Below, piece by piece: positions 202-20,000 of a DNA stretch of 20,000 bases. The DNA is from an uncultured virus (IMG/VR IMGVR_UViG_3300011006_000550) (taxonomy: Duplodnaviria; Heunggongvirae; Uroviricota; Caudoviricetes), in IMG/VR virus record IMGVR_UViG_3300011006_000550; one strand, given 5' to 3'. Position 1 is the stretch's first letter, and every line of letters starts with the position of its first letter. Both the position numbers and the translations under genes were made by a program. Under the pieces are notes generated by a model. The model was given only the letters and a program-made list of their open reading frames with translations. It was not told the origin of the DNA and ran no database searches.

Positions 202-251
202 GATGTTCTAATTTCTAAGTTAATATTGATGATTTCAATGTTATCCTTTAG

Positions 252-324
252 TGGCGGGAAGCGGACTCGAACCGCTGACCTCAAGGCTATGATCCTCGCA
301 AGCTACCAACTGCTCCATCCCGCG
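252..324 (-). tRNA. tRNA-Met (CAT), initiator-like but atypical; no encoded CCA
   Basis: Reverse complement CGCGGGATGGAGCAGTTGGTAGCTTGCGAGGATCATAGCCTTGAGGTCAGCGGTTCGAGTCCGCTTCCCGCCA folds as a cloverleaf; anticodon CAT; T-arm AGCGG-TTCGAGT-CCGCT; 1:72 unpaired (C.C). Confidence 0.9.
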
Positions 325-452: not shown

Positions 453-460
453 TATTTTTG
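453..460 (+). promoter_or_regulatory. Bacteroidetes -7 element upstream of terL
   Basis: TATTTTTG followed by CA just before ATG 470; a second TATTTTTG at 443-450; no clear -33 box. Confidence 0.5.
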
Positions 461-469
461 CACAAAAAT

Positions 470-3855: not shown

Positions 3856-4407
3856 ATGGATATAAACGTATCATCAAAACTTAATAAGATAGCCCGTAAC
3901 TACAAACTGACTCCTGAACAGCTTGCATTTGCCGATCTCGTTACGCAGGGATGGCCGGAGGAGGATGCTTGGGCTGTGGCTATCAGAACAGGCACAACGA
4001 CATGGAACCGCACGGCATTGAAGGCCGAGGTGGCGAAGTTGCTGGCATCGGAACAGGTGCAACTACGCATTTCCGAAAACAAGGAGGTGCTGCGACAATC
4101 ACAGATAGAGAAGATACAACAGGACATGAAAGACAATGCAGACGAACTTCTTGAACTGGCAACGAACAAGGAGAAGAAACTCATTGAACTGCAGTCCATC
4201 CTCAAAGACCTCAAACCCGGTTCCACCGAGTACAACAAGGTCAATGACCAGATCATCAATATCTCACGAATGAAGCAGAACGAAGTCAAGACGGATGACA
4301 AGACCATACACTATTATCTTCCTGTGTCATATCCGAAGGGCTGTCAGGACTGCCTTTATTCACGTTGCGACCAGTGCAAATACAAGAAGGAATCGGAAAA
4401 CAAATAA
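3856..4407 (+). CDS. Probable terminase small subunit-like HTH protein with C-terminal Cys cluster
   Basis: LTPEQLAFADLV...EDAWAVA...AKLLASEQVQLRISE resembles the TerS N-terminal HTH pattern; helical middle; CQDC-x4-CDQC at the C-terminus. Confidence 0.5.
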   Translation: MDINVSSKLNKIARNYKLTPEQLAFADLVTQGWPEEDAWAVAIRTGTTTWNRTALKAEVAKLLASEQVQLRISENKEVLRQSQIEKIQQDMKDNADELLELATNKEKKLIELQSILKDLKPGSTEYNKVNDQIINISRMKQNEVKTDDKTIHYYLPVSYPKGCQDCLYSRCDQCKYKKESENK

Positions 4408-5663: not shown

Positions 5664-7187
5664 TTAATCGTCTTCTTTTATGAATGTTCCTTTTTCTTCC
5701 TTGTATTCAATCTCCATGTCGGCAGTACGGATGACGAAGGGCTGACTGAGCCTGTCCTCGTTACAGCCGTAGATGATATAGCGGTAGCCCTCCTTGAAGT
5801 GCTTCTTGCCGAAACCGAACCTTCCCATCGTTTGGCCGAAGAGTTGTCTTGACGGCATATCGACATCGTTATCCTTGCAGAACTGCTCGAGACTCTTATA
5901 CAGATCCTGTGTGGCGATGGTAACGGATTCCTCATGCAAGGCACCTGGCTCTTTGCGCATACGGTATGAGTTGATCCATGCAAGCACGGGATTCATCTGT
6001 AACTGCGCAAGAAGGATCTGTCTTCTGTTACCCTCAGACGAAGGGAACACAAATTTTCTACGCTTCAACTCCCTGCAGCCTCTCAGGATCCAGTTGAAGA
6101 TACCCGGGTATTCTTCAACAAGCTCCCGTGACAAAGCAGGATTCTGTCTGTCCTTGGGTATCGTGATCTCAAAGGTGATGAATTGCAGCCTGCGGATGAA
6201 GCCAAGACTCTGATCGTCGGAGTAGGGCAGCTCGTTCAAGTTGAAGATAAGGAACGGGATATTATAATTCTCCTTCACGTCCTCACCCAGTTTCCTGTCC
6301 GTGACACTCTCACCGCTCACGATTCTCTTGAATACACCAGTGCGCTTTCTGCCAAACGTCCGTTGGTCCGAGTCCGAAGACCAATTAAAGATAGCCTCAC
6401 GCAGCAGCCTACGCGCACGCATACCCTCGTCACCCGTTGCCGTCAAATCATCATAGTCAAGGCCAGAGATCCTTTCCTTGCCGAAGATGCCGATGGCAGT
6501 ATCATAGATCGTGCTCTTGCCGTTAGCACCGGCACCAAGAAGGATAAGGCACAGCTCTATCTTCGAGGCGTTCTTACCCTCATAGGAGTTATAGACAGTA
6601 CCACGCTCCATCAGTCCCAGACCAAGGAACATCTGCAGGATCAGGCGTGAGTTCTTATCCGGCAGAACCTCATGCAGAAAATTGTTCCACTTGTTACACT
6701 TCGCATTCTCCTTATACTCGTAGGGATGATAATATGTAACATGGAACTCTGGGCTGAAAGGAAACAGCATGTACTTTCTCAGGTCCAGCACACCGTTCTT
6801 GAAGGCAATGAGATCATGCCTCGGCAACAGAGGGTTATAGTAGCGGATGATGTCGATGAAGTACTTCTTGCATATTCCCTTATCACCGATCATAGGCACC
6901 ACCCTCAGATGCTCAAGCAACAGGTCATAGGCTGTGATAATCAGTTCCTCACGGATGGCAACATATATCTTATCGTCATAGAGGTAGAAGCTGCCATCAT
7001 AGAACTTGATGTCACAATCCTTTGCAAGCATCCTGATCTTCTCGATGAAGTCAAGTTTCAGATTCTGGAACTGCTCGGAGGTCCTGTAACCCCAGCGGCC
7101 CTTGAACTTCTCGAAATTGAAGTCACCATTGGAGCAGAGCCTCAGCAGCCCGCCGTAGATCTTATCAATAACTGTACTGTCTCTCAT
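5664..7187 (-). CDS. D5/P4-family (SF3) helicase, no evident primase domain
   Basis: D5_N-like LIAFKNGVLDL...FSPEFHVTY; Walker A GAGANGKST; NELP...GFIRRL motif; winged-helix-like C-terminus. Confidence 0.85.
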   Translation of the reverse strand: MRDSTVIDKIYGGLLRLCSNGDFNFEKFKGRWGYRTSEQFQNLKLDFIEKIRMLAKDCDIKFYDGSFYLYDDKIYVAIREELIITAYDLLLEHLRVVPMIGDKGICKKYFIDIIRYYNPLLPRHDLIAFKNGVLDLRKYMLFPFSPEFHVTYYHPYEYKENAKCNKWNNFLHEVLPDKNSRLILQMFLGLGLMERGTVYNSYEGKNASKIELCLILLGAGANGKSTIYDTAIGIFGKERISGLDYDDLTATGDEGMRARRLLREAIFNWSSDSDQRTFGRKRTGVFKRIVSGESVTDRKLGEDVKENYNIPFLIFNLNELPYSDDQSLGFIRRLQFITFEITIPKDRQNPALSRELVEEYPGIFNWILRGCRELKRRKFVFPSSEGNRRQILLAQLQMNPVLAWINSYRMRKEPGALHEESVTIATQDLYKSLEQFCKDNDVDMPSRQLFGQTMGRFGFGKKHFKEGYRYIIYGCNEDRLSQPFVIRTADMEIEYKEEKGTFIKEDD

Positions 7188-7644
7188 TTATTTTCTGTGT
7201 TACATTTTTCCACAACTTACCATTTTTGATTCTTCTTATGATAGTTGGATCAACTGAGTATTTTCGAGCCAATGACCTATTAGAAGATTTCTTATCATTA
7301 TAGATGGAAATGACTATTTGTTCTGTCAATTTACTCCTGCCATTATTCTCCCCTATGGCAGATCTACCACGAATGACCCTGTCATGTACATTATCGGAGT
7401 GGGTGCCAACACAAAGATGATTCGGATTGATACACTCTGGATTGTCGCAATTATGTCTTATGACATATCCTACAGGTATTTCCCCATTAAATGCCATATA
7501 AACAAGTCTGCTTAACGCAACAACATGTCCTTCGACTTTTATTACAGGGTAACCGCGATCCTTTGCTTTGTGAGAGGTACATAACCAACAACCTCTATCT
7601 GTTTCCTTGTAACTGATCTTTCTTCCTTTAATCGTCAAATCCAT
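7165..7644 (-). CDS. HNH (homing-type) endonuclease
   Basis: CWL...GYP...RLVY...VIRHNCDNPECINPNHL..GTHSDNVHD core, then GENNGRSKLTE and an HTH tail. Confidence 0.9.
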   Translation of the reverse strand: MDLTIKGRKISYKETDRGCWLCTSHKAKDRGYPVIKVEGHVVALSRLVYMAFNGEIPVGYVIRHNCDNPECINPNHLCVGTHSDNVHDRVIRGRSAIGENNGRSKLTEQIVISIYNDKKSSNRSLARKYSVDPTIIRRIKNGKLWKNVTQKINERQYSY

Positions 7645-9836: not shown

Positions 9837-10464
9837 TCTTCAATAACTCAATGGCTTTCTCCAGAGCCTCATTGACCACATCAGCACGCAGACAACGCTC
9901 GAACTTACGGCCCTTAGCCACCTTCTCACGCTCTGCCCTGTAACTCTCCAGCAGCTTGATACAACGCTCCTTCGTCATCTTCGACTCAGGCACAAGAGTA
10001 TCTATGTGCAAAGGAGCAACACGCATGAAGTCACGCACTCGAAGATCATCAACGGCCATACGAATACCCTTCATGCAATCCGTCAGCTTCTTGCACGTTT
10101 CCTCAGAAATACCAAACTTGATGTCGATAGGATTAACATACCGCTTGCCGTCCATACCATACATACTACCGTCGGCAAACCTGAAATACATGCCGGTACC
10201 AGTAGCAGTAATCTCTACCTGATGCGATACCTTGATCCTGTTTAGATACGTGTCTTCCACCTCATGAAGCATACACTCAGGAAAACACAGAATGAAATCC
10301 TCGCCCTTATAGCGAACGTAAACCTCATAACCGTAACCAAGGAACTTCTCGATCCTTCCTACAGCATGAGTCAGATTCAATACAACTAACTTGTCAGGCA
10401 TCTGAACCTTAGCCTCGTCTGCATTGAAACCGCAAAGATCACCTTTCCTAAATTTCGGGTCCAT
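9829..10464 (-). CDS. Hypothetical protein (211 aa), first gene of the minus-strand operon
   Basis: ATG start, PKFRKGDL N-terminus typical of small phage proteins, 8-nt overlap with the next gene. Confidence 0.75.
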   Translation of the reverse strand: MDPKFRKGDLCGFNADEAKVQMPDKLVVLNLTHAVGRIEKFLGYGYEVYVRYKGEDFILCFPECMLHEVEDTYLNRIKVSHQVEITATGTGMYFRFADGSMYGMDGKRYVNPIDIKFGISEETCKKLTDCMKGIRMAVDDLRVRDFMRVAPLHIDTLVPESKMTKERCIKLLESYRAEREKVAKGRKFERCLRADVVNEALEKAIELLKNG

Positions 10465-10646
10465 CTTTGGTTAGTGAACGAACTTGAACGATATTTATAG
10501 ACCTTTTCAGAACTTCTGTCACCAGTAAACCCCTGATAACCAGCAAATTCCGCCACACAAAACAACGAAATTCACGATTTCTGGATTTCCTGGCCCCAAG
10601 ACGTTACAATCTATAGTACCTATCTATATCTAACCAAATTGCGATG

Positions 10647-10654
10647 CAAAGATA
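10647..10654 (-). promoter_or_regulatory. Bacteroidetes -7 element for the leftward operon
   Basis: Minus strand TATCTTTG followed by CA, ~180 nt upstream of ATG 10464. Confidence 0.65.
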
Positions 10655-11430
10655 CAACTTTTCATTAATATCATTCACTATTTATACAAAAAGTGCATAT
10701 TTATTAGGATTTTTTAATGAACGATATTTTTTCTACACTCTGAGATCGTTAAGAATGATGAACGATTTCGTGACATCTGACGAATTGTTAAAACGGCCCA
10801 AAAATTCAGGAAAAAAATAATTTTGAGGCGACCGCCGCCACAAATCTCGTGCCAAAAAAGGGGGTGTAGGGGGTATTTTAAGGGTATTAAAGAGTATTTA
10901 ACACTCTCTGCAAAAATTCATTAAAATTTGCTGAAATAGCCCTATTTTACACATATTTAACACTATTCCCGATATTATACCTAATAATGTAGGCTGGTTA
11001 TTTAATATTTTTTAACTTTATTTCTTTGGTTTAACAAATTTTTAGGATTCGCGCCACCATGTCATGGTAATTTATTTTTACGCCACATTGTCATAAGATT
11101 TTTCTTTACATTATGATTGATTTATATCAAGTATGATTATACATTTATGCAATAACCTTCTGGAAACGCCTTTAAACAGGGGATTTCATAAAATTGAATA
11201 TGCAATAATTTTGCGTTCCGAAATAAAGATTCTTTACACTTGAAATGTCAATATTTAATCATTATTTAACCTATAATAACATTGTCGGATTGTGCGCCCA
11301 CACATCACGATTTTGTAAACATAATTTAACTAACATGGTCGTAACATTAAGTAATATTTAGTTGTGTGCCTACACAGGCCCTTTGGGAATGCCTTTGTAC
11401 AGGGCATTATTTTGTAAATATATTTCACTA

Positions 11431-11461
11431 TTGCAAGTATGGAATTTATTTCGTAACTTTG
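11431..11461 (+). promoter_or_regulatory. Bacteroidetes promoter for the rightward module
   Basis: TTG (11431-11433), 20-nt spacer, TAACTTTG (11454-11461), ~80 nt upstream of ATG 11544. Confidence 0.65.
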
Positions 11462-11543
11462 TACTATAAGAAATGAATATTTAACCACTGCCAAACGGGG
11501 AAACGCAGCGCACCACAAAGGAGCGGAACAGCCCGAAAGATTT

Positions 11544-12158
11544 ATGTGTACATTAAACGAGACCTTAAAGAAGGTAGGAGAAAACGCCAAAGGTAGTGTC
11601 AAGGTAGAGAAAATGAAGGCCGAAATTGCCAAGGTTGCAGCCAGGTATTACGCACCTTATCGCCACGCTCTTATTAGTGAGTTGTTCAAGGGTGCCAGTG
11701 AGGACGAACTTAAGGCAGAACTTGCAGCCTTTGACGCTGACACCAAGAACGGCACACAGTTAGTTATCATCGCAGCCGACACCAAGGTGAACGCAAACGG
11801 ACAACTCACAGATGATGAGGGGAACATTCTCGAAAATGCAGTATCTTTCGCCACCGTGATTTCTACCAACAAAGACGGTGAAATCACAAAGGAGCGTCAA
11901 GTGTTCCGTGTTCCCTACATCGCAGACACCGACCAGCGTAACAACCGTATTGTTGCCTACTGGGTGCGTTTCCGTGAGACGCGCGAGGAGTCATTTGCTG
12001 CAGCCCGTGCCGCCAAGGTTGACTCTATTAAGAAGGAGTTGCAGCCGTTGTCCGTTCAGGTTGAAACATTCACCAAGTACAACGTGCCCGTACCCGCTGA
12101 ACTTTCAGAGAAGGTGGATGCTCTCAAGGCTGAACTTTCAAAACTGGGTGCGGAATAA
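11544..12158 (+). CDS. Hypothetical protein (204 aa), first gene of the rightward module
   Basis: Lies between promoter and terminator; biased codon use (CGT, AAG); helical C-terminus. Confidence 0.85.
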   Translation: MCTLNETLKKVGENAKGSVKVEKMKAEIAKVAARYYAPYRHALISELFKGASEDELKAELAAFDADTKNGTQLVIIAADTKVNANGQLTDDEGNILENAVSFATVISTNKDGEITKERQVFRVPYIADTDQRNNRIVAYWVRFRETREESFAAARAAKVDSIKKELQPLSVQVETFTKYNVPVPAELSEKVDALKAELSKLGAE

Positions 12159-12185
12159 ACGCAGACGGAAACAGACGGAAAAGAC

Positions 12186-12216
12186 GAAGGTAGGGAAATT
12201 CCTACCTTCTCTTTTT
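12186..12216 (+). terminator. Intrinsic terminator
   Basis: GAAGGTAGG-gaaatt-CCTACCTTC followed by TCTTTTT, 27 nt after the stop. Confidence 0.75.
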
Positions 12217-12243
12217 GTGCCCTGTCTTTCCAGGCCCTAAGAA

Positions 12244-12303
12244 ATCCCCTGACGAGTCTTTGAGAATTAAGACGAAACCACAGATCTGTTCTGTGGTCGG
12301 GAT
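12244..12303 (+). ncRNA. Type I hammerhead ribozyme
   Basis: Stem I ATCCC (12244-48)/GGGAT (12299-303); core CTGACGA (12249-55); stem II GTCTT/AAGAC; GAAA (12274-77); stem III CCACAGA/TCTGTGG; GTC triplet 12296-98 with predicted cut after C12298. Confidence 0.93.
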
Positions 12304-12343
12304 AATCCTTTTGTGTTTTTCCTCAGTGTATTGTCCGGCTGAG

Positions 12344-12404
12344 CGAACGGACTGAACGATTTGAACGAACGAACGATGAATAAGAGTGAACGATTGATGA
12401 ACGA
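12344..12404 (+). repeat. Cluster of (T)GAACGA direct repeats
   Basis: TGAACGA at 12353, 12362, 12387 and 12398, plus overlapping GAACGA at 12367 and 12371. Confidence 0.75.
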
Positions 12405-12408
12405 GCGA

Positions 12409-12729
12409 ATGATGTTTGTCACAAGACGTGGCCAGTCTGCTGAGATTCAGAGAAAGAACTGGCTGAGAAGACTTAGAACAAAGAGGTCTGCCGATCCCGA
12501 AGGATGGGTGACTGCAAAATTTGTTGGTCAGATGGGATTTACAAACTTTAATTTTTGTGCACATTCATGGAGAGCTATCAAGATGGAAGCCAAAATTATC
12601 GCTTCACTTCAACATGAGCCTATCGAAGTTTTGGATGCAAATACACTGATTCCATTATTCATATGTCTTCCTTGCTTTGATTCGCGTGAAGATATTATTT
12701 CATACACAGAACGTGCATTTCAGAATTAA
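12409..12729 (+). CDS. Hypothetical protein (~106 aa)
   Basis: Open frame between the hammerhead and the structured region; the longer N-terminus in the ORF track is a translation of GAACGA repeats, so ATG 12409 is preferred. Confidence 0.5.
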   Translation: MMFVTRRGQSAEIQRKNWLRRLRTKRSADPEGWVTAKFVGQMGFTNFNFCAHSWRAIKMEAKIIASLQHEPIEVLDANTLIPLFICLPCFDSREDIISYTERAFQN

Positions 12730-13401
12730 GTACGATAACACAGAGCACAGGCGCAAGCCTGTAATGTGGCTCACCTCATGGTGAACGGTTGCAAGCCCGT
12801 GCAAACAACATTCAAACGGTGAAAATGTAACGTGGAGGGGCGCAAGCCATAGCCACTACCGCACAGAGAAACCGAGCGACAACGAGCGTTTTGAACGACT
12901 TCCAGCTAATTACTTGATTTTTGTCGCCAGTGGGAGTATTGCAGCCGACCGGCGGGGTGAAACTAAAGTCCCGCAAGCCCCGCAAGGGACGAGTGACTGT
13001 TACAAATCATATTCTTAGATTATTTCTCCCGTGAGGGAGTACGATAATAACGGATAGCTACTGTCCGAGAGCGACTTGAGCAATCAAGTACGATGAACGA
13101 GTGAGTTTATCGTGGTGGTTCCCGCCAAGAGTACGAAAGCACATTTAATCACTTTAGGATGCTACGCAGTATGCAGGGCTTTGATGGTCAGGCAGCTGGC
13201 AATGAAAGACATTAAGGGTGCAAGACCCATAGCATAAAGAACGGTTTGACAGTACGATTCATAAAACTGCCACACGGAACGGTTGCAAGTAAAGAGGCCC
13301 GAAAGGGGACTTGCAGGAGAGAACGAGTACGATAACAAAAACGAAGTTCCGGAGACTACGGGAGAGAGCAGGGAAACCTGCTCTCTCTTACTTTCAACCA
13401 A
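12730..13401 (+). ncRNA. Large structured non-coding RNA candidate, family unassigned
   Basis: No credible ORF; many GNRA-capped hairpins (ACAGGC-GCAA-GCCTGT 12747-62, CCC-GCAA-GGG, CTCCC-GTGA-GGGAG, CCC-GAAA-GGG, GAGAGAGCAGG-GAAA-CCTGCTCTCTC); long-range helices 12911-19/13082-90, 12923-27/13071-75, 13275-80/13346-51, 13284-90/13309-15. Confidence 0.75.
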
Positions 13402-13419
13402 TTAAAAACAAGTACGATT

Positions 13420-13629
13420 ATGATTAAGAGAATTGCTTTGCATCTTATCGCCCTGGTGGTACTGATGCCGTGTATGTTGGTGTTTAATATCAGCGAGAAG
13501 TTATGGGTAAATATCCTTGGACTGATTTATTGTTGCTATTTGTACATCATCCTGAACGAGAGCGATGCAGCCAAGCGTTTTGTTCGTCGTTACTACCATG
13601 AGATCCTCCGTTTGCAGAACATGTTGTAG
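13420..13629 (+). CDS. Small membrane protein (69 aa), array gene 1
   Basis: Two hydrophobic segments; the TAG stop begins element 1. Confidence 0.75.
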   Translation: MIKRIALHLIALVVLMPCMLVFNISEKLWVNILGLIYCCYLYIILNESDAAKRFVRRYYHEILRLQNML

Positions 13630-13686
13630 TTTCTCTGATTTTTGTGGCAGAAGGCTGCAAAAATCGCTCACTTTCAACCACTAAAA

Positions 13687-13794
13687 ATGAACAATATGTA
13701 TTACGTAGAGATTGACAACGGAGAGAGATTCTATTTTGGCGACGATTTCAACGCTGCCGCAGTGTTCAACCATGCCGTGAATGACAGGCATTAG
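13687..13794 (+). CDS. 35-aa peptide MNNMYYVEIDNGERFYFGDDFNAAAVFNHAVNDRH
   Basis: Not in the ORF track; fills the space between elements 1 and 2, and its TAG is that of element 2. Confidence 0.65.
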   Translation: MNNMYYVEIDNGERFYFGDDFNAAAVFNHAVNDRH

Positions 13795-13844
13795 TCTTCT
13801 TTCGGCCATTGTATGGCCGAGCTATTAACCAAAGTACGATTATT

Positions 13845-14048
13845 ATGACAGACAGAAAATTTGAGCATCTTACTGATGTGGTTGATTTCTTCAGTTGGAA
13901 GCAGTTCGACGAGAAAGAGAGGTTTTCTTTGAGTGAGGACCAGCGAAGACAGCTTACCGAGGTACGCGACGAACTCGAAGACTATTCGAGGTCTGGCGAT
14001 GCGGTTGCAGATCTTTGGCTTGAATGTGCGAACGAGTTGCTGAATTAG
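13845..14048 (+). CDS. Hypothetical protein (67 aa)
   Basis: ATG 13845 after element 2; TAG in element 3. Confidence 0.75.
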   Translation: MTDRKFEHLTDVVDFFSWKQFDEKERFSLSEDQRRQLTEVRDELEDYSRSGDAVADLWLECANELLN

Positions 14049-14094
14049 TCTCTTGGAGCCTGTTGGCTCCGCTTATAACCAAAACTTACATGAT

Positions 14095-14355
14095 ATGAAA
14101 AGAAATGCTTTACTTAGGACGAGTGCTATCTTCAAGTGTATTGTCACATTCAAGAACGGCACTCACGCAGTTATCAGAATGACCATTGACATGGTAGCGA
14201 AAATCACGTATGAGTTCAGGGAGTTTCAGCGTAACATCTTCTCAGAGACATGGCTTCTCTGGGTGAGCGCAACGGAGATTCTTAACATCACAGAGATTCG
14301 TTCTTGCAAGTTCATCAACGAAAACACTGGTGTTGAGTTCCTTACGATTGATTAG
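14095..14355 (+). CDS. Hypothetical protein (86 aa)
   Basis: ATG 14095 after element 3; TAG in element 4. Confidence 0.75.
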   Translation: MKRNALLRTSAIFKCIVTFKNGTHAVIRMTIDMVAKITYEFREFQRNIFSETWLLWVSATEILNITEIRSCKFINENTGVEFLTID

Positions 14356-14404
14356 TCTTTTGGGAATCTTGCATGATTCCCGCTATTCACCAATATTCAA
14401 GAGT

Positions 14405-14830
14405 ATGTTACAATCAGAGTTTTACGACAGGACGCACGTTACTCTCTCAGCAGAGCAGTACGGCGAGGTAGAGAACATCTACAACAGGTGTCAGATGGAT
14501 AAGGACGAGTTCTGCAGGCTGTGGCTTGAGAATCGTGACAACAAAATCATCAAAGAACTGATGGACCACATCATGAACACCGAAAAGAAGTTGTATTTTG
14601 CAAAGGAAAAAGCTGCCAAATGCGACAAAGCGATTAATGACGAGCGCGAAAAATGTAAGGAGCACATTGAGAGCCTTGGGCGCAAGGTCGTTGCGAACAT
14701 CGACGATGAAACAAAGTTATACGATGCCATTGAAGAGGAGTTCACGCTTGATTTCATCATCAAGGTCAAGTTGCAGGAAAACATGGATCTCGATCTGCAC
14801 GAACGGCAGCACCTCATTGAGAAACTTTAG
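14405..14830 (+). CDS. Hypothetical protein (141 aa, MLQSEFYDRT...MDKDEFC)
   Basis: ATG 14405 after element 4; TAG in element 5; coiled-coil middle. Confidence 0.8.
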   Translation: MLQSEFYDRTHVTLSAEQYGEVENIYNRCQMDKDEFCRLWLENRDNKIIKELMDHIMNTEKKLYFAKEKAAKCDKAINDEREKCKEHIESLGRKVVANIDDETKLYDAIEEEFTLDFIIKVKLQENMDLDLHERQHLIEKL

Positions 14831-14874
14831 TCTTCGCAGCCGAACGGCTGCACTACAACCAAACTATCAGAATT

Positions 14875-15171
14875 ATGAAATATATGGCAACGTTTGATGC
14901 TTGGAAGTTGGGAACTTTCGACATCATTTTGGAAAAGTACGATGCAGATTGCTGTTCTCACCCAGGCCCGTGTGACTTGGATTGTGAGCGAACGATTAAT
15001 CTTGATTATGTCAAAGAACAACTCAAGGAAATCACCTCTGAGCAGATCCGTCAGGTCTTGATAGACTATGGCCTTGAAGATGCCGACGAGAAAGACCGCA
15101 AGCAACTTGAGACGTATATTGTCTGGCTTGCAGCGGGTGACATCATAGACGGGAACTGTACTGAATGTTAG
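14875..15171 (+). CDS. Hypothetical acidic protein (98 aa)
   Basis: Between elements 5 and 6; CCSHPGPCD motif. Confidence 0.8.
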   Translation: MKYMATFDAWKLGTFDIILEKYDADCCSHPGPCDLDCERTINLDYVKEQLKEITSEQIRQVLIDYGLEDADEKDRKQLETYIVWLAAGDIIDGNCTEC

Positions 15172-15233
15172 TCTCTATCGGGCAGTGCCCGACTATAAAC
15201 CAATTTAACTTATTATTAGAGGAGATATAGTTT

Positions 15234-15686
15234 ATGAAAGAAACATTTTGCCCTTACTGTGGTTCTGAGAATATTACTATTCAGGCTACAGACCTTTTAG
15301 AGTGTAATGATTGTAAAGAGTTGTTTACTCATGAAGATGTAGAACATAATATTCTTCGTGATAAAATCAGCAGCATCTGCTCTGCTTTCGAGGCAACTGA
15401 GGATAATCCCATTAACTGTATCAGGGAGGATGCTATGGAACTCCACATAGAAGGCATTACAGAAGCAGCACAGGGACTTTCTGAATCAGAGAAGCCACAG
15501 GTAAGCACTGTTTTCCATGATCCGGAAGGAATCGTGTGGATTACCTTTTTAGAATATCCTTTTGGGGGGTCGCCTTGTAACAGTGAACCAATGGAACTTG
15601 ATAGTATTTCTATCAATGATTCTCTGAAAGAAATTCTGTCGTGGCTTGAAGAAAACCTGAGTGTCAACGCTCTTGGAAGATGTTAG
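15234..15686 (+). CDS. Hypothetical protein with N-terminal zinc ribbon (150 aa)
   Basis: CPYCGS...CNDC; between elements 6 and 7. Confidence 0.8.
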   Translation: MKETFCPYCGSENITIQATDLLECNDCKELFTHEDVEHNILRDKISSICSAFEATEDNPINCIREDAMELHIEGITEAAQGLSESEKPQVSTVFHDPEGIVWITFLEYPFGGSPCNSEPMELDSISINDSLKEILSWLEENLSVNALGRC

Positions 15687-15731
15687 TCTCTATCGGGCAT
15701 TCGCCCGAACTATTCACCAATATTTTTGATT

Positions 15732-15899
15732 ATGGAATTTGTTCACACAGAAATCAAGGAGCATCCTCTACGAGATTGTTTAATGTTGTGGATTCCAGAG
15801 CTTCCTTTTGTGCCTCCTTTGTTTGGAACAAAGAAGGAATTAGAAGAAGCGAGAGTATTTGCAGAACAAAAAGCAGAGGATTATCTTAAAAGTCACTAA
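15732..15899 (+). CDS. Hypothetical protein (55 aa, MEFVHTEIKEHPLRDCLMLWIPELP...)
   Basis: Not in the ORF track; ATG after element 7; ends in TAA with no element following. Confidence 0.65.
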   Translation: MEFVHTEIKEHPLRDCLMLWIPELPFVPPLFGTKKELEEARVFAEQKAEDYLKSH

Positions 15900-15910
15900 A
15901 TCATTGAGAT

Positions 15911-16069
15911 ATGGCACAGAAGAAAGTAGAATGGTATTGCTTTACCGACAACAAGGATTGGGGCCGTTTTTTCATTGGCAAGGCCAGTACGAAAAGGGAG
16001 GCCGTTGACATGGGCAAGGTAGCGAACAAAGGTAAGTTCGTGGTTGAGCCGCGTCGTAAATGGAAGTAG
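15911..16069 (+). CDS. Small basic protein (52 aa), paralog of 16125-16289
   Basis: MAQKKVEWYCFTDNKDWGRFFIGKASTKREAVDMGKVANKGKFVVEPRRKWK; TAG in element 8; not in the ORF track. Confidence 0.8.
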   Translation: MAQKKVEWYCFTDNKDWGRFFIGKASTKREAVDMGKVANKGKFVVEPRRKWK

Positions 16070-16124
16070 TCTTTAAATTGCGCAATCGCCGATTGCGTAA
16101 TTACTCTAACCAATTCCATAATAT

Positions 16125-16289
16125 ATGAGCAGAAATTATCACTACGAGTATTTTGCCTATACTGACAATTTGAATTATGGCCGTGTGTATCTTGGCCAGG
16201 CACGTCAGCGTTGGTATGCACAGATGATTGCAAAAAAGGCAAACAAAGGATGCTATGTCATAGAAAAGCATCGTGTGTACGAAAATTAG
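16125..16289 (+). CDS. Small basic protein (54 aa), paralog of 15911-16069
   Basis: MSRNYHYEYFAYTDNLNYGRVYLGQARQRWYAQMIAKKANKGCYVIEKHRVYEN; TAG in element 9; not in the ORF track. Confidence 0.8.
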   Translation: MSRNYHYEYFAYTDNLNYGRVYLGQARQRWYAQMIAKKANKGCYVIEKHRVYEN

Positions 16290-16334
16290 TCTCTTGGCTT
16301 CCACTGAGAGGCCGCTATGTTTCACCAACAAATT

Positions 16335-17234
16335 ATGAAGAATATGGAAAGAAGAGAAAAAGTTAATGCCTTACGAGAGTTAGCTGTACGCTCTGGCCGC
16401 AACATTAGCATGGATCCCGACAGATGGGGAGAGCACATGCTTGACAGCCTTGAAAGCAGTCTTGACAAATTCCTTTCGCAGATTCCTGACGAGTTGAAGG
16501 ATGAAATGGAAGATGCCTACATTGAGAAATACAAGGAATGGCTTTACGCTCAGAGCCGGTGCTTCTCTCAGATGATTACAGGTGCAGGAGGCTGGACTCC
16601 TGCCGTGCATCGCAGACATGAGAAGACGAACGCTGCCGAACATGCTGCCTATGAACGGCTTCAGACTTGGGCAGAGAGAGTCATCAAACGATGCAACCGT
16701 CAGGAACGTCTCACGGGATGGGCCGAAGTTGAGCGTCTTCAGGAGAAGATAGACAACCTTACGAGATCTCAGGAAATGATGAAGGCCGCGAATAAGATTG
16801 TTCGCGACAAGAAACTGGCCGAGGTCGAGAAGGTTGACGAACTTGTTGCACTCGGATTCCGTGAAGAAGTCGCCATTGAAATCCTGCACCCTAAGTATGA
16901 TTGGATGCAGCCTGGATTTGCTTCTTACAGTTTGACCAATAACCTTGCTAAAATCAAGGATGCAGAGGCGAAGATGAAACGTCACGCTGCAATGGCAGAG
17001 AGAGCAACAGAAGGTGATGAAGTCCACGAATATGAGTGGGGAAAGCTCGTTGTTGCGTTTGGTGACGAACGCTACCGCTTCATTTTTGACGGCAAGCCTT
17101 CTCAGGAAATCATCAATCTGATGAAGTCGAACGCTTTCAAGTGGAGTCCCGCCAATTCTGCTTGGCAGCGTCAGATCACTACCAATGCAAAGTACGCCGT
17201 GAAGCGTATGATTGAGGAGCTTAACAACATGTAG
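16335..17234 (+). CDS. Phage/plasmid early-type protein with DUF3560/polyvalent-protein-like C-terminal domain
   Basis: SRCFSQMITG motif and C-terminal RFIFDGKPSQEIINLMKSNAFKWSPANSAWQRQIT, a pattern I recognise from DUF3560-type proteins. Confidence 0.6.
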   Translation: MKNMERREKVNALRELAVRSGRNISMDPDRWGEHMLDSLESSLDKFLSQIPDELKDEMEDAYIEKYKEWLYAQSRCFSQMITGAGGWTPAVHRRHEKTNAAEHAAYERLQTWAERVIKRCNRQERLTGWAEVERLQEKIDNLTRSQEMMKAANKIVRDKKLAEVEKVDELVALGFREEVAIEILHPKYDWMQPGFASYSLTNNLAKIKDAEAKMKRHAAMAERATEGDEVHEYEWGKLVVAFGDERYRFIFDGKPSQEIINLMKSNAFKWSPANSAWQRQITTNAKYAVKRMIEELNNM

Positions 17235-17285
17235 TCTTTTGTCCCGCCTTGCATGGTGGGACGCTATTAACCAATTCTACAGATT

Positions 17286-17582
17286 ATGATGAAGATATTA
17301 TCAAAGGACAATTTCAGCTTCTTTGAAATCAAGGAAGACTGCAGGGAGAATTTCAATGAGGTACGTTGGACGGACCTCTCTGACTTCCACAAGAACGCTC
17401 TGATTTGGATCGGCGATGCCATACGTGGCGATAAGTCGCAGCATTTCTGGTGTAACGGCTGCTACTGTTGGTATGTTGACGAGAAGCAGAGCCATGAGCA
17501 GGGTGTATGGATGACACAGAACGGCATAGCCATGTTCGAGGACATCACCGAGAGAAAGCTCTATCGCATCGAGTTCGTTTAG
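17286..17582 (+). CDS. Hypothetical protein (98 aa)
   Basis: Between elements 10 and 11. Confidence 0.8.
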   Translation: MMKILSKDNFSFFEIKEDCRENFNEVRWTDLSDFHKNALIWIGDAIRGDKSQHFWCNGCYCWYVDEKQSHEQGVWMTQNGIAMFEDITERKLYRIEFV

Positions 17583-17644
17583 TCTCTGAGGGAGGGGACA
17601 GATTGTACCCCTCCTTGCACATTTAACCCCTAATTTTATAGAAT

Positions 17645-17977
17645 ATGGAACAGACAGCAGTTGTTACCGATGCTCAGCGCATCAATCAGATTACCGGCCG
17701 TCCTATGGCCGATTGTGAGAAACAGGCTCAGCAGATCGCAGAGTGCATCCGTGAAATGTCCTCTCGCGTCGTTGAGTTCTACTACATGAAGAAGGATGGA
17801 ACGAAGCGTCAGGCTTTCGGCACGTTGCAGCCGGAGGTGATTGTGCCTCTTATCAGCAATGCGCCCGAGCGCAAGCCGAATCCCGACCTCGTGACGTACT
17901 ACGACACCGAGGCACAGGGTTTCCGTTCATTCAAGAAGGTGAATTTCGTGGAGTACGTTAAAGTCCCTGAAGCATGA
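17645..17977 (+). CDS. WYL_2/DUF2693 Sm-like SH3 beta-barrel protein
   Basis: VVEFYYMKKDGTKRQAFGTL...VTYYDTEAQGFRSFK signature. Confidence 0.8.
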   Translation: MEQTAVVTDAQRINQITGRPMADCEKQAQQIAECIREMSSRVVEFYYMKKDGTKRQAFGTLQPEVIVPLISNAPERKPNPDLVTYYDTEAQGFRSFKKVNFVEYVKVPEA

Positions 17978-18117
17978 GCGGTTTTGTAAAGAATGCCTGG
18001 GCCTTCTTCCTCATGATGCTCTTGTTTGGTGTGTACACCATTCCGATTATCGTTGCCATCGGGATTGTTGCTCTGCTCATTGCGAGATACAAGCCCGAAT
18101 GGTTCAACAGAGTGTAG
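17974..18117 (+). CDS. 47-aa membrane peptide, paralog of 18169-18312
   Basis: MSGFVKNAWAFFLMMLLFGVYTIPIIVAIGIVALLIARYKPEWFNRV; ATGA overlap with the WYL_2 gene; TAG in element 12; not in the ORF track. Confidence 0.8.
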   Translation: MSGFVKNAWAFFLMMLLFGVYTIPIIVAIGIVALLIARYKPEWFNRV

Positions 18118-18168
18118 TCTTAAGCCGTGCAAAGGACACGGCACCATGATTCACCAATCTTTTACAAA

Positions 18169-18312
18169 ATGACAGAAATAGCAAAATTCGCCTGGACTTT
18201 GGTCCTTGTAATCTTCTTTGTAGGTATGAAGGCTTTCATCATTCTCTTGGTGATTTTAGCCCTCATTGCAGTACTCTACATCATCAATCCTGATTGGTTT
18301 AAGCCGAAGTAA
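18169..18312 (+). CDS. 47-aa membrane peptide, paralog of 17974-18117
   Basis: MTEIAKFAWTLVLVIFFVGMKAFIILLVILALIAVLYIINPDWFKPK; stop overlaps element 13. Confidence 0.8.
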   Translation: MTEIAKFAWTLVLVIFFVGMKAFIILLVILALIAVLYIINPDWFKPK

Positions 18313-18365
18313 GTCTCAAGCCGTGCAAAGGACACGGCACCACCAACCAATTAAATTTTACGAAT

Positions 18366-19361
18366 ATGAAACATGAAGATTTTAGAATCCGCTACAATGA
18401 AATCATGTTCGACGAGCGCGACGTGATTAAGTCATTCTTAGAGCGTCAGGCCGACATTCGCTATGGTAAGCAGATGTGGGAATGGTGCCTTAACAATGTT
18501 CAGGTGATTGCCGTCAATGGTTCCCTCTATTATTGTTACGAGATTTTCCTCGAGGATGGCGATGTGAAGTTTAGGATGAAACCCGCAATCGATTGGCAGG
18601 GAGAGACAGAAGTTTGGGAATGTTCAAATTTCGCTCTTGGTGAGCTTTCAAAGATTATCGATGCTCTGCCTGAGATTGAGAAGATCATCCGTACCAATGC
18701 AGAATCTGACTTGAAGGAGTTCTGCAAGGATTGTTCTGTCAATCTCGAAGGTGAAGAGTTCCGATGGGAGGTGGGCTGTGCTGGGTACGAAGTCCAGGAG
18801 ATTGCCATTGACAACAAAGGCGACTTGAATTGCTTAGTCATGCACACAGATTCCCTTGGCAAAAAGACATTCCTCCAAGTCGATCACTTTGACTTGGATA
18901 TTACTCAGAAACTCCGCGACCATGTGCATGTTGTCATTCTGCATCGAAGCAAAGAGTATAAGAAGTTGATGGAGTTACTTGAGAAATTCGATAATCTCCG
19001 TTGCGACTTTGAACACCCTGATTACTTCATCACACCTGTCGGTACAGACCTTACTTGCATGGTTCTTTCTGTTTACAGGAATGCAGATGAGCTGTATGTA
19101 TTGACAGACCCAGGCGAGCGCATTGGCGATACATTCCTCTTTAAAGAGAAGGATTTGAAAGATTGTAATCTTGCCATCTGTATTGAGGCCGTCAAAGACA
19201 TGTTGCCTGTGAAGATGATGACAGTCACTGTCTCTGAGGTACGCTCTCGTATTATCGAAGTCGAGGCAGATGATTTCAACGAAGCGAAGAAGAAGGCCAA
19301 AGAGGTGCTTGAAAAAGAGCCTCTTAATGACGGCGATTCCAACGGAATCCAATTCCTTTAG
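18366..19361 (+). CDS. Hypothetical protein (331 aa) with C-terminal DpnD/PcfM-like domain
   Basis: C-terminal MTVTVSEVRSRIIEVEADDFNEAKKKAKE matches the DpnD/PcfM pattern by eye; TAG in element 14. Confidence 0.7.
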   Translation: MKHEDFRIRYNEIMFDERDVIKSFLERQADIRYGKQMWEWCLNNVQVIAVNGSLYYCYEIFLEDGDVKFRMKPAIDWQGETEVWECSNFALGELSKIIDALPEIEKIIRTNAESDLKEFCKDCSVNLEGEEFRWEVGCAGYEVQEIAIDNKGDLNCLVMHTDSLGKKTFLQVDHFDLDITQKLRDHVHVVILHRSKEYKKLMELLEKFDNLRCDFEHPDYFITPVGTDLTCMVLSVYRNADELYVLTDPGERIGDTFLFKEKDLKDCNLAICIEAVKDMLPVKMMTVTVSEVRSRIIEVEADDFNEAKKKAKEVLEKEPLNDGDSNGIQFL

Positions 19362-19415
19362 TCTCTCGGGAGCCGTGCACGGCTCCTACTATTATTCACC
19401 AAAATTCAAAGTAAT

Positions 19416-20000
19416 ATGATAAAGATAGACACTTACGAACTTGCAAAGGAAGTTCAGAAGATTGAGATCAGAAATCTCGTTGAAGCAGTCAAATCCTATG
19501 GTGGCAGAGTCACGTTCTGTGATATGGATGCCGTTGATGGAGAGCAGACTGCTGACGTTAATGAGAGGGCTTGCGTCATGGTAAACGTTGACAACGTAGG
19601 CCCTATCGATGTCTATATCAATTCCGTAGAGGTCGATGATGATTCTCACCTCCATATCAGAGGCGAGTACAAAGACGATTTCGGAGAGTACGACATCGAC
19701 GCGACAGATATTGCCGTCGGCCACATCGGATTTATCACAGATCTGATTCCTTTCAAGAAGGGAATGAAGAAACTCTGGCTTCGCCTTGGTGTTGAGGTTG
19801 ACGCTACAGACGAAGAGGTTGAGGACATCATCGAGAACAAAGGCAGCTGGGGCAGATTCAGCATCCAGCAGATTATCGAGGATGGCCGTTTCAGACTGTC
19901 GGGACTTACCGTAGTGCCGGAGGAAACCATCGAAGATTTCAACAAGGAAGAAGGCTCTCAGTTTGAGGTCAAAGATGTAGAGTACGATTACAAGTCATAA
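19416..20000 (+). CDS. Hypothetical acidic protein (194 aa)
   Basis: ATG after element 14; TAA at 19998-20000. Confidence 0.8.
   Translation: MIKIDTYELAKEVQKIEIRNLVEAVKSYGGRVTFCDMDAVDGEQTADVNERACVMVNVDNVGPIDVYINSVEVDDDSHLHIRGEYKDDFGEYDIDATDIAVGHIGFITDLIPFKKGMKKLWLRLGVEVDATDEEVEDIIENKGSWGRFSIQQIIEDGRFRLSGLTVVPEETIEDFNKEEGSQFEVKDVEYDYKS

Follow-up and report, generated by a model that had tools for sequence, protein, structure and literature searches.

Does a short unpaired segment at the end of a large structured phage RNA serve as a docking site for a motif repeated between the genes of its operon, or is its complementarity to that motif a coincidence? The question arises in a 20,000-nt stretch of DNA from an uncultured virus (hereafter, the window), in which an original prediction, made from the sequence alone, recognized an octamer ahead of the first gene of an array whose complement recurs along that array, and proposed that this one site could pair, mutually exclusively, with any of the recurring elements. 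We find that an early cassette operon opens with a conserved leader RNA, folded and headed by a ribozyme, and that positions 13346–13401 form its 3' junction. The flagged stretch consists of the 3' strand of a helix (P-alpha), an 8-nt unpaired linker, a covarying terminal hairpin (P-term) and a G-poor tail; such a tail regularly precedes each gene of the array.

The phage and its ribozyme-headed leader

The window comes from the genome of a Bacteroidales phage that is LoVEphage-like. The source virus is a gut or rumen phage, and its nearest named relative is LoVEphage, whose terminase is 49% identical and whose gene order is that of the window, but without connectors (as we call the recurring elements), GTACGAT or ribozyme. 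The locus itself runs from a terminator-like hairpin through a ribozyme, the gene for a small basic protein, a twister and a covarying leader of about 620 nt to at least 15 small genes, each closed by one shared motif (Table 1); in relatives, a terminator-like hairpin likewise lies just ahead of the first ribozyme. In the window, that ribozyme is probably a hammerhead: the predicted fold of its 72 positions (12232–12303) shows stems I–III together with the hammerhead core letters, which match those of two crAss-like phages. Its only Rfam match, RAGATH-1-hammerhead, scores 29.3 bits (E = 0.13), under the gathering score of 56.3, and the RAGATH matches listed comprise this hammerhead and one chance-level match of 18.4 bits elsewhere. 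In the phages G003 and G002, a twister-P1 occupies the place of the hammerhead, and homologs of the Twister-P5 that heads the leader are present in L114 and L115. The small basic protein (P0001) is 48% identical to an ORF at the equivalent place in the relative L210, and searches for it placed it in neither a Pfam nor a PHROG family and gave no Atlas match of use.

Table 1. Coordinates of the features discussed (window numbering).
Feature	Position	Strand	Remarks
Intrinsic-terminator-like hairpin and T run	12186–12209	+	10-pair stem, tail TCTTTTTGTG; after 204-aa gene 11544–12158
Probable hammerhead ribozyme, three-way junction	12232–12303	+	core CUGACGAG ... CGAAAC ... GUC
Small basic ORF P0001, 117 aa	12376–12729	+	between the two ribozymes
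Type-P5 twister ribozyme heading leader	12739–12800	+	43.5 bits vs. gathering 37.6, E = 3e-6
Structured leader body	12801–13345	+	GNRA-capped hairpins, GTACGAT motifs, invariant blocks
P-alpha, 5' strand (CGGAAC)	13275–13280	+	pairs with 13346–13351
P-beta hairpin, 13283–13289 with 13310–13316	13283–13316	+	encloses small GAAA-capped stem
P-alpha, 3' strand (GUUCCG)	13346–13351	+	G13351 is base 1 of the octamer originally noted
Invariant single-stranded linker GAGACUAC	13352–13359	+	complementary to (K)UAGUCUY
P-term hairpin, 13360–13372 with 13377–13389	13360–13389	+	GAAA loop
G-poor tail ACUUUCAACCA ... GUACGAUU ahead of first ATG	13390–13419	+	similar tails precede other array genes
First array gene, 69 aa, hydrophobic	13420–13629	+	C-terminal RRYYHEILRL is conserved; some relatives lack the gene or have another in its place
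Connector 1	13627–13681	+	TAGTTTCT, 13-pair hairpin, tail ACTTTCAACCAC
Connector 2	13792–13832	+	TAGTCTTC
Connector 3	14046–14082	+	TAGTCTCT
Connector 4	14353–14393	+	TAGTCTTT
Connector 5	14828–14862	+	TAGTCTTC
Connector 6	15169–15203	+	TAGTCTCT
Connector 7	15684–15720	+	TAGTCTCT
Connector 8	16067–16113	+	TAGTCTTT
Connector 9	16287–16328	+	TAGTCTCT
Connector 10	17232–17274	+	TAGTCTTT
Connector 11	17580–17630	+	TAGTCTCT, tail ends AACCCC
Connector 12	18115–18157	+	TAGTCTTA
Connector 13	18311–18350	+	stop TAA then AGTCTCA; motif shifted one base relative to stop
Connector 14	19359–19402	+	TAGTCTCT

Connector-based probes led to three phages (G002, G003 and L210), each of which carries the leader together with its linker. 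A loose connector pattern returned mostly chance matches (among 80 fetched loci, only G002 and G003 were real), and a loose leader pattern gave 69 chance matches and no homologs in genome contigs. With a profile of the first array gene, viral contigs yielded known loci only and genome contigs none; the search with the 204-aa neighboring protein gave no related loci, a second cassette probe no new phage, and the last viral scan three additional chance matches (L220, L223 and L224). Nothing resembling the leader or the first array gene was found in the GenBank phage collection.

Covariation across the homologous leaders supports the fold. For the structure as a whole, the share of paired cells is 94.7%, versus 82.6% in shuffles, and none of 500 shuffles reached the observed value; the 3' domain contains 59 predicted pairs, 19 of them with compensatory change. 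All six pairs of P-alpha have changed on both sides, with 100% of cells paired (16 sequences), whereas P-beta has compensatory changes at three of seven pairs (100% paired) and P-term at seven of 13 (93% paired). Farther upstream, 13026–13039 folds locally into a GNRA hairpin, and compensatory changes give its stem six variant forms (including CUCCC/GGGAG, CUCGC/GCGAG, CUUGC/GCAAG and CAGUG/CACUG), with ACGGGAGAG staying the same. The unit 13346–13401 has the strong hairpin originally ascribed to it (−26 kcal/mol, z = −5.0), followed by the tail ACTTTCAACCA, which also follows connector 1 (13669–13679).

The octamer was placed and read correctly: 13350–13359 is cGGAGACTAC, with GGAGACTAC at 13351–13359 and a minus-strand match to TAGTYTYY, TAGTCTCC, at 13351–13358. 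Its first base, however, belongs to a helix. Position 13351 is the only variable position of the octamer (G, A or U among leaders), and as column 154 of the alignment it covaries with its helix partner, column 68 (UA in 12 sequences, CG in three and AU in one). Because G13351 is paired within the leader, at most 7–8 nt are free for docking, so that of the 8-bp docking site originally proposed, a free and complementary segment of this length stands and position 1 does not. The segment that follows, GAGACUAC(G), is unchanged in 16 of 16 distinct homologous leaders, with the flanking helices changing by compensation, and its GAGACUA is predicted to be unpaired with a probability of 0.57–0.96. The prediction thus withstood the refuting condition named with it, that homologs would keep the array elements but lose or vary the AGACTA site: GAGACTACG is retained in all 16 distinct leaders, including the most divergent, that of L210, to which a connector hairpin led and not the leader itself.

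A search of the leader for a conserved cis partner of the linker found none. A long-range helix suggested by RNAalifold (ACUACG/CGUGGU) was set aside, as it never varies, overlaps the search probe and retains only four pairs in L210; the leader block GUGG...CCCG fits a local hairpin instead.

Connectors and their complementarity to the linker

The window contains 16 copies of TAGTYTYY where 5.28 are expected, a number reached in none of 200 shuffles. Twelve of these lie on the plus strand (13627–19366), each overlapping the stop codon of a small plus-strand ORF, and downstream of each core come a hairpin, a C/A/T-rich tail with an ACCAA-like end and, 5–30 nt on, an ATG. As originally noted, the complement of 13351–13358 matches the cores of 12 connectors, and two more connectors, with the cores TAGTCTTA (18115) and AAGTCTCA (18311), are variants. 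The accompanying observation, that C/T changes at positions 5, 7 and 8 account for all variation among the 12 cores, is correct for the window; the wobble argument built on it fails for position 8 in relatives, in which that position is A or G in 28 of 100 connectors.

Across 14 loci, 83 distinct connector units occur at ORF stops. In 17 of them the stop is TAA or TGA, and AGUCU nevertheless stays beside the hairpin; among 81 TAGTCT connectors, the base before TAG is T (51), G (27) or A (3). The motif proper of the connectors is K-UAGUCU-Y or, after TAA and TGA stops, a shifted AGUCU. A scan for promoters and terminators did not account for the connectors: T-rich tails follow the hairpin in two of 14, and a sigma-70 type scan, which does not model Bacteroidota promoters, found no recurrent promoter at them.

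Among 100 distinct AGTCT connectors, six contiguous pairs with the linker are possible in 21, seven in 55 and eight in 24, and the duplexes predicted between the linker and all 14 connectors in the window range from −7.9 to −13.0 kcal/mol. In 12 of 14 minimum-energy folds the connector core is unpaired; the competing stem between TAGT and RCTA that the original prediction invoked is marginal, forming in two. In dinucleotide-preserving shuffles (5000 each), a match as good as that observed arose within the 56-nt unit in 0.9% of cases for the 8-mer, 1.9% for the 7-mer GAGACTA and 4.8% for the 6-mer, and within the 648-nt leader in 1.4%, 5.3% and 19%, respectively; because the match was chosen after looking, these figures are optimistic. 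The match between linker and connectors thus exceeds chance only nominally.

Explanations for the invariant linker

The explanation that we place first, although at somewhat less than an even chance, is that the leader itself has in the linker a core element specific in sequence, whose complementarity to the connectors is coincidental. Twisters self-cleave, and cutting of the transcript by the twister would leave a leader with a defined 5' end. The linker might be a junction engaged in a tertiary contact, or one bound by RNA polymerase or another protein, and through it the leader could set the stability of the operon, read-through or translation of the first gene. The 7-nt complementarity would be a coincidence of two purine/pyrimidine-rich conserved motifs, perhaps helped by the letters ACUA, which are common to the linker and to the RCUA that follows many connector hairpins.

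Several features agree with a leader-intrinsic role. Other unpaired stretches of the leader (AACGAA, CAGG and ATAAAGAA) are likewise invariant, so a junction that never changes is nothing unusual here and does not call for a partner elsewhere. The one variable position of the octamer tracks its helix partner and not the connector cores: Position 8 of the core is T in 11, C in three and A in two connectors of leader class G, and T in 41, A in 17, C in six and G in one of class A, and of the 18 AGTCT cores in L210, where position 1 of the octamer is G, eight carry a purine (A or G) at position 8. Moreover, since T precedes TAG in 51 of 81 connectors, the duplex is not extended to the C of the linker in most cases. 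Against a leader-intrinsic role, the linker shares a 7-nt complementarity with the conserved motif that is most abundant in its own transcript, is among the few stretches that are both invariant and accessible, lacks a conserved partner within the leader, and is present in all three phages to which connector-based probes led.

These last points are what an anti-connector guide would account for, an explanation that we consider a real possibility, if one well short of even. By this account, the free GAGACUA(C) pairs with (K)UAGUCUY at gene ends, one connector at a time, whether within its own transcript (nascent or complete) or in trans, and so marks gene junctions for processing, read-through or re-initiation. 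The 7-mer complementarity, with its shuffle chance of 1.9–5.3%, and the seven or eight contiguous pairs available in 79 of 100 connectors are both consistent with such a guide, as are the stability of the predicted duplexes, the unpaired state of both partners and the invariance of the linker between two helices that are themselves supported by covariation. In addition, that AGUCU keeps its place whatever the stop codon suggests a signal in its own right, which needs a reader. However, the linker and the AGUCU core are both fixed, hence there is no covariation between them, and the flanking positions do not track the cores. Eleven variant cores have a central mismatch that breaks the pairing (TAGCCT in nine and TAATCT in two; TAGTTT, found in five, is wobble-compatible), and stray copies within the array coding regions are not avoided (AGTCT, 35 observed vs. 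38.9 expected; TAGTCT, 7 vs. 4.4). Seven base pairs would also be short for a chaperone-free contact over 0.3–11 kb, we know of no prokaryotic precedent for so short a guide, and the match was picked after the fact. The more specific proposal, that a twister-trimmed leader uses the linker as an operon-wide guide that directs cutting, read-through or re-initiation at each junction, we regard as slightly less likely again. A trans-acting hammerhead, with the GUC of the connector as its cut site and the linker as an arm, was set aside on inspection by eye: the linker offers GAGA against GAAA in the Rfam hammerhead consensus, and no CUGAUGA-like strand precedes P-alpha.

The linker might also share its origin with the connectors, its ACUAC being the counterpart of their RCUA and the 3' domain of the leader an overgrown connector; one protein or nuclease would then read both, and the complementarity to UAGU would derive from a weak closing pair, UAGU/RCUA. 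The terminal unit of the leader is indeed a hairpin and tail just like those of a connector, RCUA follows the hairpin in 10 of the 14 connectors of the window, and relatives recombine at the tails: in L133 the leader is followed directly by a homolog of the second array gene, the first being absent, in L119, L120, L123 and L126 an unrelated first gene comes right after the conserved leader tail, and 13391/13392 runs straight on into 13552 or 13656 in two DNA contigs. (One RNA run and one probable-DNA 'metatranscriptomic' run, examined as contigs, do not cover 13232 to 14571.) But the conserved linker is 8–9 nt long (GAGACUACG) and not 4, ACAA replaces RCUA in many connectors of relatives, the UAGU/RCUA stem is rarely the predicted fold, and in L210 some 200 nt separate the linker from the first ATG, which makes it part of the leader core. 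A common origin is thus improbable.

Less probable by far is a signal at the DNA level, in which AGACTA and TAGTCT are inverted repeats for a recombinase or nuclease that inverts or moves cassettes. The cassette content of relatives differs exactly at connectors, and an HNH endonuclease gene is present at 7165–7644. Nonetheless, the joints observed in four runs are all skips, with no change of strand, gene order and strand are constant in all long relatives, and the position of the linker between two RNA helices with compensatory changes argues for selection on RNA. Finally, the suggestion that the region derives from a group I intron, AGACUA being a P7 strand and ACGGGAGA/TCTCCCGT (13358–13365 with 13025–13032) a P3, has next to no probability: AGACUA/UAGUC was originally likened to the P7 pairing, but no group I intron is among the eight matches listed for 10400–20000 (E up to 10), ACGGGAGA forms the 5' strand of the covarying P-term, the supposed partner lies at the local GNRA hairpin with its own compensatory changes, and no interrupted gene is seen.

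Comparison with known systems

If the linker truly pairs with the connector motif, no phage operon before this one would have been shown to be punctuated under RNA guidance, with the docking logic of tracrRNA or Dscam applied to the messenger RNA of a bacterial virus. The anti-repeat of tracrRNA pairs with every CRISPR repeat of the array transcript and directs its processing into units, through a far longer duplex that is cut by RNase III with Cas9. The candidate guide considered here, in contrast, has 7–8 nt, lies in cis, heading the transcript that it would guide, and has no known nuclease.

Processive antitermination offers another comparison, its leaders including lambda nut, which acts with N, and HK022 put. 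As in those systems, a structured leader heads a long early operon, there is a hairpin after every gene, and a gene for a small arginine-rich protein (P0001) lies just upstream; the connectors, however, are without the T run of intrinsic terminators, and P0001 is without a family match. The locus also resembles RAGATH RNAs, in that a conserved, non-coding, structured phage RNA directly adjoins a twister and a hammerhead, but no Rfam family covers 12801–13419 at E up to 10.

In Dscam1, a single conserved upstream site is complementary to a motif repeated in each unit of an array, one pairing forms at a time, and the pairings persist through sequence turnover between species (PMC7430681). Dscam acts in spliceosomal introns, where it chooses exons, whereas the ORFs of the phage operon are all complete from start to stop codon, with none split, and no intron family matches; the phage linker and core are, moreover, invariant, and the duplex would be of 6–8 bp.

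The PeSLs of T4-type phages are composites of terminator and promoter that form short stem-loop repeats between small, variable early genes (PMC4122927). The hairpin-and-tail half of 13346–13401 is such a unit, 14 units occur in the window, and gene gain, loss and swapping in relatives end at the repeats. Unlike PeSLs, the connectors are seldom terminator-like and show no recurrent promoter match in the sigma-70 type scan, and in the abstract of that work the AGUCU motif and the long structured leader have no counterpart. Likewise, the accessible text of the literature on phage twisters and hammerheads, LoVEphage, RAGATH and Bacteroides boxA/NusB does not describe this leader or its connectors.

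The role of self-cleaving ribozymes and their neighboring structured RNAs in phages could be studied at this locus, which is a compact, conserved test case. Even if no pairing takes place, the leader is a large structured RNA that is still undescribed, and mutagenesis would naturally begin with its invariant junction; the connectors, for their part, are a tool-like standard part for gene cassettes of Bacteroidales phages. As a separate observation, the connector tails show a weak likeness to boxA in a comparison with one Bacteroidota rRNA leader (L219).

The junction at the 3' end of the leader

The leader, i.e., the folded RNA that follows the Twister-P5 ribozyme and precedes an array of small genes, ends in a real feature: an invariant, unpaired junction of eight nucleotides, followed by the hairpin-and-tail unit that is standard in the array. 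As originally observed, GGAGACTAC is present at 13351-13359, the hairpin of the unit at 13346-13401 is strong (-26 kcal/mol, z -5.0), and its tail, ACTTTCAACCA, is the same as that of connector 1, the connectors being the 14 intergenic units of the window with a TAGTYTYY-type core. Comparison of 16 distinct leader ends (RNAalifold on 14 sequences, pair counts on 16) places the stretch between two helices with compensatory changes. In P-alpha, 13275-13280 pairs with 13346-13351; 100% of cells pair, six of six pairs change on both sides, and there are four forms (CGGAAC/GUUCCG, a UCCCAC/GUGGGA type, and those of the related loci L125 and L210). In P-term, 13360-13372 pairs with 13377-13389, and 7 of 13 pairs are compensatory. 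Taken over the entire structure, the share of paired cells is 94.7%, compared with 82.6% in shuffles and about 50% with one strand slid. The sole cis helix proposed by RNAalifold for the linker, ACUACG/CGUGGU, was set aside, being invariant, overlapping the search probe and reduced to four pairs in L210.

The linker, GAGACUAC (13352-13359), is the eight bases that separate these helices, and together with the following G it is identical in all 16 leaders. The octamer's first G, G13351, ends the 3' strand of P-alpha; 12 leaders have A at this position, three have G and one has U, always matching the partner in column 68 (UA 12, CG 3, AU 1). Because G13351 belongs to P-alpha, the externally pairable part is GAGACUA(C), not GGAGACUA. 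One relative (G003) carries an insert of about 100 nt within the P-term loop, and L210 has about 150 nt rich in GTACGA between P-term and the first ATG. From these positions, the linker and P-term are part of the core of the leader, whereas the tail is the usual sequence ahead of a cassette gene. A second exact GGAGACTAC in the relative G002 (locus L115, 4912-4920), inside an ORF between two twisters, is probably due to chance; the regular linker of this locus lies at 5826.

Connectors within the array

The connector cores are as originally described: the window has 16 copies of TAGTYTYY where 5.3 would be expected, a count that none of 200 shuffles reached; 12 of the 16 lie on the + strand within the array, and two more cores read TAGTCTTA and AAGTCTCA. 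Each core overlaps an ORF stop; behind it come a hairpin, a G-poor tail with an ACCAA-like end, and the next ATG. Among 151 stops in 14 loci (143 distinct contexts, some spurious ORFs included), 87 (83 distinct) have AGTCT within 11 nt; 66 of the distinct cases read TAGTCT, and 17 have a TAA or TGA stop with the motif shifted by 2-6 nt. Because the motif is kept beside the hairpin at TAA and TGA stops, the signal is AGUCU next to a hairpin, with the stop tucked in when it is TAG. Adding L210 gave 100 distinct connectors from 15 loci. The base preceding the T of TAG, i.e., position three of the last sense codon, is T in 60, G in 30, rarely A (10) and never C (0/100), so that the connector motif reaches into coding sequence (K-UAGUCU-Y). 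The first base after AGTCT is C in 46, T in 49, A in 3 and G in 2, and the second is T in 60, A in 26, C in 12 and G in 2; variant cores are TAGCCT (9), TAGTTT (5) and TAATCT (2).

Only 2 of the 14 window connectors resemble intrinsic terminators, and a promoter scan saw no recurrent sigma-70-type promoter at them. Whole-cassette differences between relatives fall exactly at connectors; L133 lacks the first array gene, an unrelated gene takes its place in L119, L120, L123 and L126, and in DNA contigs from two runs the leader tail is joined to points farther on. L124 differs from the others some 165 nt upstream of its linker, with ATAGTCTT in place of AGTACGAT, which places a connector-like core within the leader. 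The rRNA leader of a Bacteroidota genome (L219, 1218-1228, - strand) reads GTTCTTTAACA, presumably its boxA, and connector tails (CTATTAACCAA) are only loosely like it.

Readings of the linker

We tentatively favor the reading that the linker is a core element of the leader's own fold, or of a contact with a protein or polymerase (nut and put leaders are the familiar background), and that its complementarity to connectors is coincidental. Shuffling the 56-nt unit yields complementary 8-, 7- and 6-mers in 0.9%, 1.9% and 4.8% of cases, and shuffling the 648-nt leader in 1.4%, 5.3% and 19%; nominally this is unusual, but for a match spotted by eye it is not compelling.

A somewhat less probable, still substantial possibility is that the linker truly pairs with any one connector core, as originally proposed. 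Loss or free variation of the site in homologs, which would speak against such docking, was not seen in any of the 16 leaders. The linker is predicted to be unpaired (0.57-0.96), and we found no conserved cis partner for it in the leader. Duplexes of -7.9 to -13.0 kcal/mol are predicted to be possible with 14 of 14 window connectors; the minimum-energy folds leave the core free in 12 of these 14, and 79 of 100 connectors allow seven or eight contiguous pairs. Against this, or neutral to it, linker and cores are both unvarying and there is therefore no covariation; core position 8 is independent of the leader's base (A or G in 8 of 18 L210 cores); most connectors have U just before TAG, and U does not pair with the C of the linker; 11 variant cores would have a central mismatch versus 5 that are wobble-compatible; and neither TAGTCT nor AGACT is avoided within array genes. 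The two RNA-labelled runs consist of contigs, and these leave the site uncovered. The connector's own UAGU/RCUA stem, suggested as a competitor, forms in 2 of 14 folds and is absent from the others; many relatives have ACAA in place of RCUA after the hairpin. If pairing does occur, the linker would be functionally like the anti-repeats of tracrRNA or the docking sites of Dscam.

A shared-module origin of linker and connectors is unlikely, and that their letters are a DNA-level signal is very improbable. The suggested group I origin was rejected as having almost no chance of being correct: there was no such intron among eight matches with E up to 10, the proposed P3 partner lies in a local hairpin (13026-13039) whose stem is compensatory in homologs with ACGGGAGAG unchanged, and the other P3 strand, ACGGGAGA, is the 5' strand of P-term, itself with compensatory changes.

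Genomic setting, relatives and ribozymes

The window also holds portal, primase/helicase and HNH endonuclease genes (PHROG matches), and its terminase shares 49% identity with the terminases of Bacteroides phage LoVEphage and kin. LoVEphage shares the tRNA position upstream of the terminase, with eight tRNA genes there. A 1-kb AT-rich gap precedes the + strand block, and about 620 nt after the twister hold no credible ORF.

Coordinates of features in the window and of the first-ribozyme site in two relatives
Feature	Position	Strand	Remark
tRNA-Met gene	251-324	-	directly upstream of terminase
Terminase	458-2173		PHROG match
204-aa gene	from 11544	+	first of block after AT-rich gap
Terminator-like hairpin	12186-12209	+	after 204-aa gene
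Hammerhead (first-ribozyme site)	12232-12303	+	29.3 bits, E 0.13, below Rfam gathering; canonical three-way fold
First-ribozyme site, G003 (L114)	13308-13371	-	type-P1 twister
First-ribozyme site, G002 (L115)	4236-4299		type-P1 twister
Basic ORF, 117 aa	12376-12729	+	between hammerhead and twister
Twister-P5 ribozyme	12739-12800	+	score above Rfam gathering
GTACGAT	12730, 13039, 13088, 13252, 13327, 13412, 13834, 14937, 19982	+
Small ORFs (at least 16)	13420 to window end	+	array

A scan with the connector pattern gave mostly chance matches, but also genuine arrays in two phages: G002 (75.6 kb with terminal repeats) and G003, both ordered as terminator, twister-P1, small ORFs, second twister, GTACGAT-punctuated leader and array. 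A conserved leader block far from the linker, used as probe, yielded 17 metagenome loci; a second probe added L138, and one from the conserved connector hairpin added L210, whose leader is the most divergent. Nothing similar to the leader was found among GenBank phages or in one genome per prokaryote species, and a literature search at abstract level found no paper on it; this covarying, twister-headed RNA is previously undescribed.

The place directly after the terminator-like hairpin, taken by the hammerhead in the window, is occupied in G003 and G002 by a twister of type P1 (53 bits, E 2e-9). This change of ribozyme class at the same place suggests selection for the cut itself rather than for the RNA family. 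Twister cleavage would leave a 5'-hydroxyl end on the transcript. Two 151-nt contigs of an RNA-labelled public run (X22) are identical to window 12414-12564 and 12728-12878, the latter crossing the twister uncut; they may be DNA carry-over and hence no evidence of transcription.

The small protein between the ribozymes has no family match; it is 48% identical to that at L210 2994-3302, with an arginine/lysine-rich N-terminus, and in L210 its frame extends into the twister. Within the array, the gene at 17645-17977 encodes a protein with a WYL_2 Sm-like SH3 barrel (Pfam E 7e-18), a possible nucleic-acid binder; most of the other array genes lack a family assignment.

GTACGAT, a candidate multi-copy binding motif, occurs nine times against 1.55 expected, and none of 200 shuffles had as many. 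Among the relatives it lies within hairpin loops, after hairpins and immediately before the first ATG, and in G003, G002 and L138 in the twister stem loop. GAACGA-like runs, resembling GTACGA in letters, occur at 12345-12410, close behind the first ribozyme and ahead of the start codon of the small ORF; G003, G002 and L210 have them in the same place, and in the window they are also found in the upstream AT-rich region (10465-10760). In L138 (reverse strand, about 6680-6880 of the oriented locus), a leader module of about 95 nt, reading AATAACGG ... GTGGTTCCCG ... GTACGA, is tandemly duplicated; judging from this one relative, module duplication is how the leader grows.
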